The notes under the pieces: model-generated
What the model saw: only the letters and a program-made list of their open reading frames with translations
Told to the model about the DNA's origin: nothing
Databases searched by the model: none
Position numbers and translations under genes: made by a program
Sequence record: PP892526.1
DNA: 64,000 nt
Origin: Escherichia phage vB_EcoM_I14.1
Strand: one strand, 5' to 3'
Part shown: one piece after another, positions 16,220-64,000 of the stretch
Layout: every line of letters starts with the position of its first letter
Position numbering within the stretch: position 1 is the first letter of the stretch

Positions 16220-16765
16220 TCAAAGGTGTCCTTTTACTTGTGGTGTATAGATATCAAAAGTTGCTTTTCCATCTGCTGATGGTCTTGACTGAATCTTAGC
16301 AAAAATTTTACGGTCATGCAACTTGTCAAAGAAGTTCTCAAAAGGTAGATACACAGTTGCCTCTTCAGTCACTTCATGGAAAACTGTATGAAACACTACA
16401 TCAGCATACGGTAAAGCACTGACAAGGATACCTGCACCACCAATTACGAAAACATCTTCTTCAATATTACTGTCAAGATACTTTAAAAATGCTCCAAAAG
16501 AGTCTTGATGAGATTTAGCAAACATAACGTCATCTTTACTAAAATCTATACCGTAATAAGGCACAGAGTTTGTTAAGATAAGGTTTTCACGTTCAGGTAA
16601 AGGATTACTTCCCAGAGTCTTGAAAGTCTCGTTACCCATTACTACTAAGTTGTCTTTAGTGAGTCTCTTAAACTCTTGCATATCCTCTTTATGTCGAGGC
16701 CACGGCATACCAGTTGGAGTACCAAACTCACCATTTCCACCACTTGCAAAGATTAATTTAATCAT
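16220..16765 (-). CDS. frd: dihydrofolate reductase
   Basis: DHFR signatures: GMPWPRHKEDMQEF, VVMGNETFKTLG, VFVIGGAGI; co-located with thyA. Confidence 0.8.
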   Translation of the reverse strand: MIKLIFASGGNGEFGTPTGMPWPRHKEDMQEFKRLTKDNLVVMGNETFKTLGSNPLPERENLILTNSVPYYGIDFSKDDVMFAKSHQDSFGAFLKYLDSNIEEDVFVIGGAGILVSALPYADVVFHTVFHEVTEEATVYLPFENFFDKLHDRKIFAKIQSRPSADGKATFDIYTPQVKGHL

Positions 16766-17022
16766 TTTGTAAATCCTTTCTTAATGAACCAGTTGATAAC
16801 AGTCTTCACAGCTTTATTGCTATGGTAGATTAAGTGCGGTGTAGGTTGGTATGAACCATAAGCCCAGAAAGCAATAATTTCACTACACCCTGTACATCTT
16901 GTACTCTCTTCAGCAATATGACCGTTGACTATTTCACTTACCTCGCCTTGTAAGTCTGTACATCCACAATGTGGACAACGAATAGGTGCTCCGTCAGACT
17001 CATAGCAGTGTTCAATTTTCAT
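16762..17022 (-). CDS. zinc-ribbon protein
   Basis: CPHCGC ... CTGC cysteine pairs. Confidence 0.35.
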   Translation of the reverse strand: MKIEHCYESDGAPIRCPHCGCTDLQGEVSEIVNGHIAEESTRCTGCSEIIAFWAYGSYQPTPHLIYHSNKAVKTVINWFIKKGFTK

Positions 17023-23377: not shown

Positions 23378-26077
23378 TTAGTGTACTTCAAGCCAGCTTT
23401 TACCAACCTTACCAGTACCTGTTACAAGTGTTTCTTTCTTAAGACCTAAGTTCTTAGAAGCTTGCCCATAATACCAGTCAGTAACTGCTTTCACTTCTGC
23501 CGTCATACTTTCTGGACATTCCCAACTCGTTTCATCGTGATATGCGCAGAGCAAGCGAGCACCAATAGCTGGTTGACGACCATTCAACTTCATCAAACCT
23601 TCGTCAATCATACGACGACAAGCAAGGTTAATTGCCTCATTTTGAATCTGAGCCTCTGAACCCATCAAAAGATAGTTCAACAGTTTGTGTGGAGATTTAC
23701 ACCACAACCAAGCTCCAGCAACCTTTACAAAACCCCCTTTAGAGATTGCAGCAGTCTTACCAAACACCTCTTCAAGTGCTTTTTTAGTCGCTTTGTAGTC
23801 AGCTTCCAAGTCATCAAGCAGCTTCTTAATTTTAGGCAAACGAATAAAGTAAGTCTGTTTAGTCAGTGCACCTTCCTGAGTAGTTGCAGCTTTAATCGTC
23901 TTAGCAAACTTCTCATCACCTGCACCGAACAGCAGTGCATAGATACCATTCTTAGCTTTCTTACGACCCTTACTAATCTCATGAAGAAGATTCTCATCCT
24001 GAGTAGCTCGGCAAGTCAAGATATCCTGCTCATCATTCAAGCTAAAGTAAATACTGTTCAGTGTGTGTGCATCAGTCCCTGAATAGACAACGTAAAGGTC
24101 ATTCTCAGAGTCATAGCGTAGGTACTTATCAATCTCTGGATTGAGGTACTCATCAAAGTGTTTGCAGTAATAGCGTCCATCTTCTTGACGAATAAACTCA
24201 ATCTCTTCTTTACCTTGCGTTACCGCTTTGGTGAAGTCTTTGTCACCCATAAAGTTACAAAGAAGAACTAGCTGGGCTGAGTTCATGTCTACAGAGACAA
24301 CGTTAGTACCTTCTTCACAAATCCACACTGCCCTCATTGGTTCCCCATAGACAGCAGCACCAGACGGTACGTTTACAATACCATACTGTGTCATACGCCC
24401 AGTTGAAGTACCAAATACCATTGCACCAGCACTAAGGCGACCATCAGGACGAATCTGGTTCAGCCAACCTTTTTCATCATCCTTTGAGTTCTCAATAGTT
24501 CTGCGTCGGTGCATCAAAGTATAGTACTTAGCAATCTTCTGTCCAAGCTCACCTTCAATCGTATCATAAGATGATTCAGTAAGCTTTGGTGAAGTCCTAA
24601 TCAGACAAGGTTCAAGTAAATCTGTGTACTTCTTCACAGACCAGTTATGCTCAATGTACTGGACACCTTCATGTTCAACATAACTCAACCCACACCGTTC
24701 AACCATCTCCTGCCACTTAGGATGCTTTGTAATCATCTTTTTGTTGTCTTTGAAACGACAAACTTTGACAGGGCGACCGTCTGAATCTTTCTTGTAGTTC
24801 CAGTCATCTGGAATCCAACCAACTGATTTCAAATAGTCTTTAACAACTGCTACCTGAGTCATACGAGAAACTTCGAACTCAATTGGTGTATATGGTGCAT
24901 CAATCAAACCTGTGTAGCGACTTGACTCAAGCTCAAAGTGGTTAACAACATGGCTGTTATAGTACTTCACAGTTTTAACTGTTTTTACTGGCTTCCAATC
25001 TTTGCATTTCTTACCAATCTTTGCATTCAACTCATTGCAAATTGCACGAGCATCCTTCATTGCTACAAAACCTTCCTTGTACTCTTCACCAGTTACAGAG
25101 TTGGTTGGTGTATAGCAATTCCGCTTTTCAATGTTAAAAATCTTTGTAGTTGGCTTACCAAATGGCTTGATTTCATATGTCTGCATCTCACCGTTACGTA
25201 CCTGCTGACGATACTTTGTCTTAGGGTACTTGGTAATTCTCTTCAATCCATCTGCATGCCCGAATGCTTCAACATACTCATTCCAAGCTTTTGCAAACTC
25301 TTCTCCAGTGACTTTACCTTTGGTCTTAATAGTTGGTGGAAGGTGTGGTTCAACTTCTGAAGCAAGCTCATTAGTCAACTTGTCAAGTTCCTTTACATGA
25401 AACTCCATAAGTTCTTTATCAGCTTTCCAACCATTGATAGCTTGTTGACTCATCCAGAAAGATGTTTCTTTAGCTCGCATGTAGGTTTCATAAGTATCTA
25501 CGCCACACTTCTTCAGCTTGAGATATTCATTATCCAGTGCGCGTTTAGTTTTGGCGTTAATACGGATATCTTCTACAACACGAGTGAAGATTTCTGCATT
25601 CCACACACCCCAATGTTCAATCTCTGGTTTACGTACACCAACACGAGCACCCCATGCTGCCAAGCCATGAGCGCCTTTATAGCCTTTTGGAGTTGGTCTA
25701 TCCATCCACTGAACACGAGACTGGATAAGAGAATCCTGAAAGAAATTACTCCACGGCTTACACTTTGGATTATCAAAGTTCCACAAATCAGGTGCAATGT
25801 GATTGAAAACCCACCAGTCATATCCCAGACCATTATGGATGCAAAGTCGTTTTGCCTTTAACGCAAACTCAACACCTTCACGCAAGCCACCCTTAATGTA
25901 CTTGGTATACTTGTGACCGAGGATAGGTTCATCTGTAAAGACCCATACAGGCGGCTCTTCATCGTCAGATTTATAGTCTGCGAAAGCCATTACGTGCACT
26001 TTAGTGAACTCAAGGAGTAAACCATCAGTTTCTGTATCACCAACTAAATGTAAGTTTTTAAAATCTACGTTTTCCAT
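23378..26077 (-). CDS. DNA polymerase, family A, with 3'-5' exonuclease domain
   Basis: Exo motif VGDTETDGL; Pol A motif B-like KKAKNGIYALLFGAG; motif C-like LLCAYHDETSWE; start at Met behind RBS gagggag (ORF track 26107). Confidence 0.85.
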   Translation of the reverse strand: MENVDFKNLHLVGDTETDGLLLEFTKVHVMAFADYKSDDEEPPVWVFTDEPILGHKYTKYIKGGLREGVEFALKAKRLCIHNGLGYDWWVFNHIAPDLWNFDNPKCKPWSNFFQDSLIQSRVQWMDRPTPKGYKGAHGLAAWGARVGVRKPEIEHWGVWNAEIFTRVVEDIRINAKTKRALDNEYLKLKKCGVDTYETYMRAKETSFWMSQQAINGWKADKELMEFHVKELDKLTNELASEVEPHLPPTIKTKGKVTGEEFAKAWNEYVEAFGHADGLKRITKYPKTKYRQQVRNGEMQTYEIKPFGKPTTKIFNIEKRNCYTPTNSVTGEEYKEGFVAMKDARAICNELNAKIGKKCKDWKPVKTVKTVKYYNSHVVNHFELESSRYTGLIDAPYTPIEFEVSRMTQVAVVKDYLKSVGWIPDDWNYKKDSDGRPVKVCRFKDNKKMITKHPKWQEMVERCGLSYVEHEGVQYIEHNWSVKKYTDLLEPCLIRTSPKLTESSYDTIEGELGQKIAKYYTLMHRRRTIENSKDDEKGWLNQIRPDGRLSAGAMVFGTSTGRMTQYGIVNVPSGAAVYGEPMRAVWICEEGTNVVSVDMNSAQLVLLCNFMGDKDFTKAVTQGKEEIEFIRQEDGRYYCKHFDEYLNPEIDKYLRYDSENDLYVVYSGTDAHTLNSIYFSLNDEQDILTCRATQDENLLHEISKGRKKAKNGIYALLFGAGDEKFAKTIKAATTQEGALTKQTYFIRLPKIKKLLDDLEADYKATKKALEEVFGKTAAISKGGFVKVAGAWLWCKSPHKLLNYLLMGSEAQIQNEAINLACRRMIDEGLMKLNGRQPAIGARLLCAYHDETSWECPESMTAEVKAVTDWYYGQASKNLGLKKETLVTGTGKVGKSWLEVH

Positions 26078-62706: not shown

Positions 62707-62955
62707 ATGGCAACTATCCGCGCAACTGTCAATGCTTATGGCTGTTATACTCTGGACGTTAAATTTGATATTGGTGGAACTGATGAGTGTTTTTCATTAG
62801 TGAAGACAGTTATCAAGCAAGTTATCCCAGATTATAACCCTACTGATGACTTCTGGAAAGATGCTGTAAAAGAGGCATTAAACGACGAGCATCACTATCA
62901 TTACTGGGGTGACTTGATTATCTCACTGTACTACAATAAACAAGGTTACAACTAA
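62707..62955 (+). CDS. early small protein, hypothetical
   Basis: Leader cassette upstream; last ORF before strong terminator. Confidence 0.45.
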   Translation: MATIRATVNAYGCYTLDVKFDIGGTDECFSLVKTVIKQVIPDYNPTDDFWKDAVKEALNDEHHYHYWGDLIISLYYNKQGYN

Positions 62956-62961
62956 TCGCCG

Positions 62962-63017
62962 CAACGGGGCTAAATAGCCCCAGATACCTTCACAGCCCCA
63001 TTTAAGGGGCTTTTTTA
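62962..63017 (+). terminator. tandem hairpins with T-run; strong intrinsic terminator closing the early array
   Basis: ggggct-aaat-agcccc, then agcccc-attta-aggggct followed by TTTTTT. Confidence 0.65.
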
Positions 63018-63019
63018 CG

Positions 63020-64000
63020 TCTATGTAATAGCCTCTATACAATCCCTTTCCTTTCCTTTCCAGAATCTTACTAGACCTTAAAAGCAATAACTCTATAGTC
63101 TACTCTATAATCTCTTATCAAATCAACTTAAATAAAAGCCCATAACCCGAAAGGGAAGGGTAACCGTTTAAACGCTCTATAAAGCTCTATAACAGCCTTA
63201 TCAACCTAACTTAAGGGATTGCATTAACTCACCCTAAAAAGCCCTTTATAAAGCTTCCTAGAGCCTTAAAAGAATCTTATAAGGGTGTAAGCTTTATTAT
63301 CTCGTTAGTTCCTTGTGAATAACTAGAAAGGGCTTGTTAGTGTCTTAAAAGTATGTTATAGGGGCTATAAAGTTACTTCAAAGTTACGTAAAAGTGGTTT
63401 AAAAGTTACGTAAATGCTAGCCCCCTTAACATTTTCTTAACAATTTCTTAACAACCCCTACATAGTTATGCTTGTTAGCAACTTGTTAGCCCCTTGTTAA
63501 ATCTCTGTTAAAACCACGTAAAAGCCTTGTAAGAGTCTTTAGCATAGCCTTTAAAGCCCCTGTAAAGCCCTATAAATAGCTTTCTGTATAGTTGGGGTGT
63601 AATTACTAGGGAGAGACTAAAAAGAGCTTATAAGGAGCTATAGAAAGCTTTTAAGAGGGCTATTTAAAAGGTCACTAAGAAAGGAAAGGGAACGATAAGA
63701 AAAGAGATAGTGACCATGTTAATAGCTTGTTAAAAAGATTAAACACTTGTTAGGAACTTGTTAATTATCTTAACAAAATAACTCTTTAAAATTAACTTGT
63801 TAGCTCTTGTTAGTCATCTGTTAAGATTCTATAAAGACCATGTAGCAACTGTTAAGAAACTGTTACACCCTTGTTAGTTCTGTTAAGAATCTGTTAAGAC
63901 CTCTGAAGAGATGTTAAGAGGTTGTAAGAACTGTTAAGAGATTGTTAAGGATATTTTAAAATTCTGCAAAGGGGATGTTACAGGGATGTTAAGGGCTACC
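63020..64000. repeat. ORF-free, repeat-dense non-coding region (ctctata, acgtaaa and TGTTA word families)
   Basis: No ORF of 60 aa or more on either strand; ctctata x5, aaagttacgtaaa x2, 21 copies of TGTTA. Confidence 0.6.
63850..63995. repeat. helically phased TGTTA(A/G) iteron array
   Basis: TGTTA starts at 63850, 63861, 63872, 63881, 63892, 63912, 63932, 63943, 63976, 63987 (spacings 11, 11, 9, 11, 20, 20, 11, 33, 11), plus a tgtaag variant at 63923. Confidence 0.6.

Follow-up and report, generated by a model that had tools for sequence, protein, structure and literature searches.

A phased heptamer array in the conserved terminal non-coding region of a Felix O1-like phage genome: a candidate site for packaging recognition

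Introduction

What does a phage genome keep in a stretch of DNA that codes for no protein, and yet is full of short repeated words? The question is raised by the right-hand end of a 64,000-nucleotide (nt) stretch of Escherichia phage vB_EcoM_I14.1 (record PP892526.1; the whole stretch is referred to as the window), where open reading frames (ORFs) cease after a strong double-hairpin terminator. An original prediction, made from the letters alone, had described about one kilobase (kb) of maintained non-coding DNA with several independent families of protein-binding words, and had named terminal-repeat or host-factor sites as possibilities. As far as sequence can tell, the region is almost certainly the terminal non-coding region of a Felix O1-like (Ounavirinae) phage genome, including the right-hand copy of a 581-base-pair (bp) direct terminal repeat (DTR). 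The explanation taken as a whole, which joins this genome terminus and its repeat to a packaging-recognition mechanism of the T7 type, is considered rather probable. This article examines the identity of the region, its words and their conservation, the boundaries of the repeat and the roles that have to be weighed, and compares the region with known systems.

Identity of the genome end

The window from 62900 to 64000 is 100% identical to the final 1101 bases of PP886228.1 (Escherichia phage vB_EcoM_D4, Felixounavirus, 89,439 bp), and about 250 other Felix O1-like records match the same segment at 77-95%. Window positions in the region of interest are obtained by subtracting 25,439 from those of PP886228.1, and by subtracting 25,363 further to the left. 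The decisive point is that positions 1-581 of PP886228.1 are identical to window 63420-64000, which is therefore the right-hand copy of a 581-bp DTR. The left copy lies outside the window. By sequence identity, the right edge of the window would be the physical right end of the linear genome. The two parts of the region are:

63420-64000, no strand: right-hand copy of the 581-bp DTR, placed by identity with record positions 1-581 and by homologous annotated or mapped DTRs
63018-63419, no strand: unique left flank of the DTR, non-coding and phased at 10-11 nt, lying in the virion just inside the right-hand repeat copy

The earlier guess of a terminal repeat was thus right for 63420-64000 and wrong for 63020-63419, which is unique flank. 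The segment then singled out straddles the left repeat boundary, 63020-63419 being flank and 63420-63850 repeat.

Several other records place the ends in the same way. The D4 authors took their DTR ends from PhageTerm, which also underlies the annotated 581-bp terminal repeat of Pr103Blw; Citrobacter phage HP1 (genus Mooglevirus) carries a 570-bp repeat feature. In a multiple alignment, both ends of the Pr103Blw and HP1 repeats fall on exactly 63420 and 64000. The ends of the 608-bp DTR of UAB_Phi87 were mapped by Bal31 digestion and run-off sequencing (Bardina et al. 2016); the published repeat (sequence taken from the PDF) aligns to window 63428-64002 with 85% identity, its ends being at most 8 nt away. 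The record of Erwinia phage M7 (genus Kolesnikvirus) gives a 444-bp DTR, with ends 3 and 2 nt from the homologous positions, and these boundaries also form the start or end of at least 10 additional records from other laboratories. Identity at both ends, a mapped homologue and coinciding boundaries, the sequence-level marks of an Ounavirinae DTR, are therefore all present. The DTR itself is an already documented element of the Felix O1 group, seen here in another isolate.

The window is not a verbatim slice of PP886228.1, because a 76-nt tandem duplication at about 87100-87220 of that record is missing from the window at about 61761. The duplication covers a poly-C run, a ribosome-binding site and the first codons of an ORF of 176 amino acids (aa), and it is here that the offset changes from 25,363 to 25,439. 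The discrepancy reflects either an assembly artefact or versions or isolates that differ.

Extent and setting of the gap

The ORF-free stretch (hereafter, the gap) is longer than originally described. It runs past 63850 and past 64000, with about 610 nt more beyond the window end in record PP886228.1, up to the terminator of the leftmost − strand gene, and amounts to about 1.6 kb in total. The claim that it is free of ORFs holds: none of 60 aa or more follows the double terminator, none of 30 aa or more starts after 63087, and in a six-frame scan of the whole 1.6-kb gap stop-free runs reach at most 57 codons. A 3-nt periodicity is also absent, and with it any coding signal. Stop codons do stand in every frame, as had been pointed out, but they follow from TAA and TAG within the words and are no separate feature.

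Hidden genes in the gap are rejected on the grounds of these short open runs, the missing 3-nt period and the inconsistency of annotated small coding sequences (CDS) among phages. The D4 record has two such CDS, of 54 and 45 aa (window 62923-63087 and locus L002 1033-1170, both on the − strand), and other small CDS are annotated inside the gap in ESh21 and GEC_vB_BS. All are probably gene-caller artefacts, since they overlap terminators or non-conserved stretches and are not common to different records.

At its left, the gap is bordered by one feature:

62966-63017, + strand: tandem hairpin terminator, closing a + strand block of small genes of early type, of which the last is 62707-62955

Both hairpins are G+C-rich and the second is followed by T6; the fold has an energy of −24.4 kcal/mol (z = −3.7). 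At 62994-63011, a terminator-like site precedes a run of T, and the AYO145A and Mordin records annotate a terminator at the homologous place. On the circular or concatemer map, the gap forms one uninterrupted spacer, insulated from transcription, on either side of which lies one of two convergent gene blocks, each capped by a terminator; the same layout is found in AYO145A, Mordin, SUSP1, Sf17, Alf5 and others. The region is AT-rich, with a G+C content of 31-36%.

Repeated words and their helical phase

All words listed in the original prediction are found at the places named, and they are strongly clustered. CTCTATA occurs at 63033, 63091, 63103, 63175 and 63185, always on the + strand; with only three other copies in the 64-kb window, five of eight fall within 160 nt. 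AAAGTTACGTAAA is found at 63380 and 63402, and ACCACGTAAAAG at 63513. The supposed independence of the word families is another matter, as all of them share a single phase of 10-11 nt across the gap. Lag-11 identity is 0.405, compared with 0.268 ± 0.013 in coding controls (z = 10.9), and harmonics appear at 21-22 and 31-32 nt.

The main family had been overlooked. It is the heptamer YTGTTAR (NTGTTAV), which in the form NTGTTAV occurs 34 times in the gap, equivalent to 21 per kb as against 2.5 per kb elsewhere; on the + strand, 12 of its spacings measure exactly 11 nt. Of the 97 YTGTTAR copies in the window, 20 fall in the 615 nt between 63334 and 63948. Near the putative cleavage sites, short words are clustered far above chance, as in a terminase site composed of repeated words. 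From left to right, the word features are:

63033-63061, + strand: CTCTATA copy (63033-63039) and a CCTTT tract of 3.4 units (63045-63061), in a non-conserved, indel-rich part of the flank
63091-63109, + strand: first conserved CTCTATA tandem pair, 12 nt apart, from word positions and alignment
63175-63191, + strand: second conserved CTCTATA tandem pair, 10 nt apart, from word positions and alignment
63380-63414, + strand: two copies of AAAGTTACGTAAA (63380-63392 and 63402-63414), in an 11/22-nt tandem array abutting the left repeat boundary
63426-63454, − strand: three reverse TGTTAA heptamers, 11 nt apart, the first being 6 nt from the left end of the repeat
63472-63511, + strand: four YTGTTAR heptamers in exact 11-nt phase, from word positions
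63716-63992, + strand: heptamer arrays with 17 forward NTGTTAV and 1 reverse (63770), at spacings of mostly 9-11 or 20 nt, reaching the right end of the repeat

The rightmost forward heptamers, at 63975-63992, extend as far as the right-hand end of the DTR. The sequence ATTTTAAAATTCTG is present as an exact 14-nt direct repeat at 63953-63966 and at L002 664-677, which is 34-47 nt inside and 84-97 nt outside the right boundary, respectively; both copies are within conserved AT-rich blocks.

Conservation and selection

The idea of maintained non-coding DNA is well supported. The gap is present in 119 Escherichia, 76 Salmonella, 22 Shigella, 14 'Felixounavirus', 11 Citrobacter, 9 'Enterobacteria' and 3 'Phage' records. 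The record counts for the terminase gene are the same, except for Salmonella (80); the gap is thus found in about 254 of about 258 enterobacterial Ounavirinae records, that is, in essentially every one that has a terminase gene. Between D4 and members of Mooglevirus and Suspvirus, identity is 74-78% in the repeat and 67-74% in the flanks, compared with 46-72% in the neighbouring genes, so that between genera the region stands above the genes that flank it; for the left flank alone the figure is 67-73%, as high as in these genes or higher. It is less conserved than the large terminase subunit (TerL), which is mostly 95-99% identical. The region is a real, conserved, functional non-coding element.

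What is conserved are the words and not the spacers. Averaged over the 19 forward TGTTAR copies of the repeat in five distant phages, the five core positions are 95-98% conserved, in contrast to 55-75% for positions between words; the word is also kept in M7. Judged by these comparisons, the words are under selection, and a single heptamer is conserved across four genera. Length changes point the same way: 18 of 29 distinct indels of at least 5 nt differ from a multiple of 11 by no more than 1 nt (six measure 11 nt exactly), and units are therefore gained and lost with the phase kept.

Eleven phages from three genera share one layout, with 16-20 forward and 3-5 reverse TGTTAR copies in the repeat. 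CTCTATA is present in the left flank in 2-5 copies on the + strand versus 0-2 on the − strand, in the right flank on the − strand only, and in the repeat either not at all or as one − strand copy. Because it lies mainly on the + strand to the left and only on the − strand to the right, CTCTATA points at the repeat from both flanks. Both words of the pair at 63091-63109 are unchanged in 10 of the 11 phages, Alf5 having CTCTACA as its first word, and the three reverse heptamers at the left end are kept in all 11, with one extra 11-nt unit in Alf5. AAAGTTACGTAAA varies between one and three copies in relatives, with the copy nearest the boundary nearly invariant. The CCTTT tract and the CTCTATA at 63033 are not kept; in the alignment, the tract is missing or different in relatives.

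The most distant comparison is with M7, whose DNA aligns over 9% of the query only, and yet its repeat keeps 11 forward and 5 reverse TGTTAR copies together with the 11-nt period. Four of the five reverse copies are in the left 130 nt. In the left flank of M7 (L018 1485-2051), TTCTAA(G/A) stands in place of CTCTATA; all 11 of its copies are forward and none is reverse. The retention of TGTTAAG in the repeat alongside a swapped flank word suggests two distinct binding partners, one conserved and one lineage-specific.

Boundaries of the repeat

The two ends of the repeat are defined by the following motifs, in which a slash marks the boundary:

63418-63432, + strand: left boundary motif TA/GCCCCCTTAACAT, in which G63420 is the first base of the repeat; the starts of the Pr103Blw and HP1 repeats align with it
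63986-64000, + strand: right boundary motif ATGTTAAGGGCTACC/; the conserved block goes on outside the window as AAGCAGATATACA

In their wider context, TGCTA/GCCCCCTTAACAT and TGTTAAGGGCTACC/AAGCAGATATACA, the boundaries are among the best-conserved blocks of the gap. They are also related to each other. Read inwards, the right boundary becomes GGTAGCCCTTAACAT, the inverted counterpart of the left one. The word CCCTTAACA is found at 63423 (+) and 63987 (−), 3-5 nt inside each cut and in mirror orientation. Reading inwards from both ends gives CCCTTAACA(T) and then, 11 nt later, T(T/G)TAACA, with 20 of 38 positions matching at the best offset. A 21-mer that spans the right boundary occurs once in each of 28 Felixounavirus-sized viral contigs; the scan of viral contigs with this 21-mer gave no matches beyond contigs of that size.

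A possible role in DNA packaging

Phages with short exact terminal repeats face a common problem: each concatemer junction contains one repeat, which must be turned into two copies. In the model for T7 and T3, staggered single-strand nicks at the two repeat boundaries are followed by strand-displacement synthesis. Since conservation here is specific to the words, the YTGTTAR arrays and CTCTATA words may be regarded as putative protein-binding sites. Of the roles considered, a packaging-recognition region for the cutting of concatemer junctions is the most likely one for the arrays; by analogy with known sites, it is an evenly balanced call.

In the mechanism proposed here, the phased YTGTTAR heptamers in the repeat and the inward-facing CTCTATA words in the flanks would be binding sites for the packaging machinery on concatemeric DNA. 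This machinery would consist of a T4-type large terminase and a DNA-recognition partner; it would recognise the concatemer junction and cut at the two conserved boundary motifs. The simplest reading of the mirrored boundary word is a T7-type scheme: a single strand would be nicked per boundary, in a geometry common to both, and strand displacement would copy the intervening 581 bp, so that both daughter genomes would receive the full repeat. Polarity of the complex could come from the heptamer array, which runs mainly in one direction. The mirror-placed CCCTTAACA, just 3′ of each reported 5′ end and on opposite strands, would fit a single nicking enzyme that acts alike at both sites.

The large terminase is encoded outside the window, at PP886228.1 16968-18569. 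It is of T4 type, with the domains Terminase_6N and Terminase_6C; its clade placement is taken from Bardina et al. 2016. Directly upstream of its gene, at the place expected for a small subunit, is a 66-aa ORF (L019 10747-10947, record 16746-16946; phrog_4397), for which no match to a functional family or domain was found.

A number of points weigh against a packaging role. No small terminase subunit is recognisable, as the ORFs upstream of TerL (66, 244, 185 and 80 aa) match only families of unknown function; the same applies to the genes that neighbour the region, and no other DNA-binding protein is recognised at either place. The word CCCTTAACA has two further copies elsewhere in the window and therefore cannot suffice on its own, and the distance from word to end differs by 2 nt between the two ends. 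Reported boundaries vary by 2-9 nt among methods, so that the exact placement of the nicks, and the strands that would carry them, are putative. As M7 has TTCTAA instead of CTCTATA, the flank word may have a partner other than the conserved terminase. The arrays are linked to the terminase by analogy, and phased repeats beside an AT-rich conserved block would suit a replication origin too.

A more specific version of the packaging role can be put forward only tentatively, and is rather less likely than not to be correct in its details. This would be a recognition architecture of a previously undescribed type, formed by the heptamer arrays of the repeat and the CTCTATA words that face it, and belonging to a T4-type TerL that has no recognisable small subunit. 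About 30 phased TGTTAAG words would be read by TerL or by another phage protein, which would introduce one single-strand nick per boundary, the two mirror-image boundaries being 581 bp apart.

Alternative explanations

Phased direct repeats in AT-rich DNA call to mind an iteron-type replication origin, at which a phage or host initiator would bind the words with 11-nt phase and open the nearby AT-rich stretch, the DTR merely overlapping with it. Phased direct repeats are indeed numerous, although this is a generic property that packaging sites have in common. The conserved AT-rich block just past the window end (about 64071-64100), the two DnaA-box-like TTATTCACA 9-mers, which lie in inverted orientation with one in each flank, and the fact that the phage encodes its own primase-helicase and DNA polymerase would also be in keeping with an origin. 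An origin is nevertheless unlikely. The best-conserved blocks are the two mapped DNA ends and not the AT-rich core; relatives do not retain the 9-mers as DnaA boxes, and the window shows no enrichment of TTATNCACA; no initiator-like gene adjoins the region, and cumulative GC skew simply tracks gene orientation. The TTATTCACA words (DnaA-box form TTATNCACA) are at 63314-63322 (−) and L002 1088-1096 (+), and have conserved cores but not conserved full 9-mers. The low G+C content and helical phasing might instead reflect binding of the words by host nucleoid proteins (IHF, Fis, H-NS), or intrinsic bending that aids the handling of ends; lambda cosB uses IHF beside its terminase sites. However, there is no IHF consensus in the gap, and the wedge-model curvature of the DTR is ordinary, at 19.9 degrees versus 19.0 ± 2.2 elsewhere (indicative only). 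The conserved unit is, moreover, a specific heptamer and not AT-richness, and the same word is kept in the Erwinia phage. With the DnaA-like 9-mers not conserved as boxes either, the host-factor sites originally envisaged are unsupported, and this type of explanation is improbable.

For T5, a role in end protection or DNA entry has been proposed for the repeat-rich left terminal region. Applied to the present phage, a virion or early protein would bind the terminal heptamers and shield the ends from RecBCD, or pace ejection. Both physical ends begin with 2-3 heptamers of the same polarity relative to the end, as expected for an end-binding protein; yet most heptamers are far from the ends, within the repeat and in the right flank, which leaves the internal and flank arrays unexplained. 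Stepwise DNA transfer is not known for the group, and none is described in the group's literature examined. This role, too, has little probability. Least credible of all, and by any measure very improbable, is the notion of neutral filler, namely a slippage-prone tandem repeat between convergent terminators without sequence-specific function. Units do come and go in 11-nt steps, variation is free in the CCTTT tract and over roughly the first 70 nt of the flank, and the long inverted repeats of D4 are not kept in relatives. Slippage does not, however, account for word cores that are so much better conserved than their spacers, nor for a region that between genera exceeds its neighbouring genes in conservation and is present in essentially all terminase-carrying enterobacterial Ounavirinae records, with a word orientation that is constant in three genera and a heptamer that is kept in a fourth.

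Candidates of other kinds were rejected. For structured RNA, the sole hit of an Rfam scan had E = 0.91 and lay on the terminator hairpin. Sigma-70-like promoter sites number 8, compared with 3.7 ± 2.0 in shuffles, which is not compelling, and none of them faces a gene; CTCTATA is too rare elsewhere in the window to be a general phage promoter. The long inverted repeats I2, I3 and I7 lose complementarity in relatives, down to 12-22 pairs without compensation, and are by-products of shared words. GC skew fails as an origin marker because it tracks the direction of transcription.

Other conserved features and the absence of GATC

Two further features of the region are not made up of the repeated words:

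63138-63161, + strand: conserved block GCCC-ATAA-CCC-GAAA-GGG-AA-GGG(T/C), hairpin-like, in which a GNRA-type loop is possible
63677-63709, + strand: tract with purines at 30 of 33 bases, in the central part of the repeat, where heptamers are few; in the 64 kb, 33-nt windows of this kind number only two

A 20-nt window at 63141 is 100% conserved in five distant phages. The block is invariant across three genera, hence there is no covariation to score. In relatives, the sequence of the purine tract drifts but its richness in purines persists; the CCTTT tract at 63045-63061, itself not conserved, is a partial complement of it.

The tetranucleotide GATC has 0 copies in window 1-64000, compared with 180 ± 12 expected from shuffles; for other 4-nt palindromes, the ratio to expectation is 0.39-1.04. 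Nor does GATC occur in about 110 kb of relatives' sequence from four genera (loci L001-L019). The lack of MboI/GATC sites has already been noted for the genus in the Alf5 and VpaE1 papers.

Significance

Felix O1-like phages are widely used for the typing of Salmonella and E. coli, and in biocontrol and therapy. With the ends pinned to two conserved, mirror-related motifs, and with a heptamer under selection, concrete targets for mutagenesis and footprinting are available. As regards annotation, Felix O1-like records could open consistently at these boundaries, and the small ORF calls in the gap could be dropped. If true, the more specific recognition architecture outlined above would provide a sequence-level handle on the duplication of short terminal repeats outside the T7 group.

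Comparison with known systems

Iteron origins such as lambda ori and plasmid oriV resemble the present region in their helically phased direct repeats and AT-rich neighbour. They differ in that the region has no adjacent initiator gene and no conserved DnaA boxes, and that its conservation peaks at the DNA ends.

The region also resembles well-studied packaging sites. P1 pac consists of seven TGATCA/G hexamers around the cut, lambda cosB of R1-R3 plus an IHF site, and SPP1 has pacL/pacR boxes. Like these, the region has several copies of a short word flanking a cleavage site, helical phasing, conserved words and free spacers. The P1, lambda and SPP1 sites measure 100-250 bp, have 3-7 copies, and serve headful or cos packaging, whereas about 34 copies are spread here over 1.6 kb, with two cut sites 581 bp apart. 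Binding by the small subunit is documented for those sites; here, the binding role is putative and no small subunit has been recognised.

The T7/T3 concatemer junction, with its 160-bp terminal repeat flanked by the short-repeat arrays SRL and SRR, is a further functional parallel. Its ends are reportedly made by staggered nicks and strand-displacement copying. Common to both are a short exact terminal repeat, arrays of ~7-nt words beside the cut sites, non-coding sequence, and a repeat that must be duplicated in packaging. The present repeat has 3.6 times the length of the T7/T3 one and is itself filled with words; there is, in addition, a second family of words, directed inwards from either flank, and the terminase, of T4 type, has no recognisable small subunit. 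In T7, transcription by the phage RNA polymerase helps junction processing; no phage RNA polymerase is present here.

The DTRs of other Felix O1-like phages (UAB_Phi87, 608 bp; Pr103Blw, 581 bp; Felix O1; FO1a; M7) are homologous, with boundaries within a few nt. Their location is also the same, with the block of small genes ending on one side and the lysis/tail block on the other, and they show no essential difference from the repeat described here. Of the repeat, the Felix O1 genome, D4, Pr103Blw and UAB_Phi87 papers give the length or the sequence only; word arrays are described neither in them nor in the Bas63 essentiality preprint, and the word architecture appears to be undescribed. Together with the mirror-image boundaries, it is a useful but incremental addition to a documented DTR.

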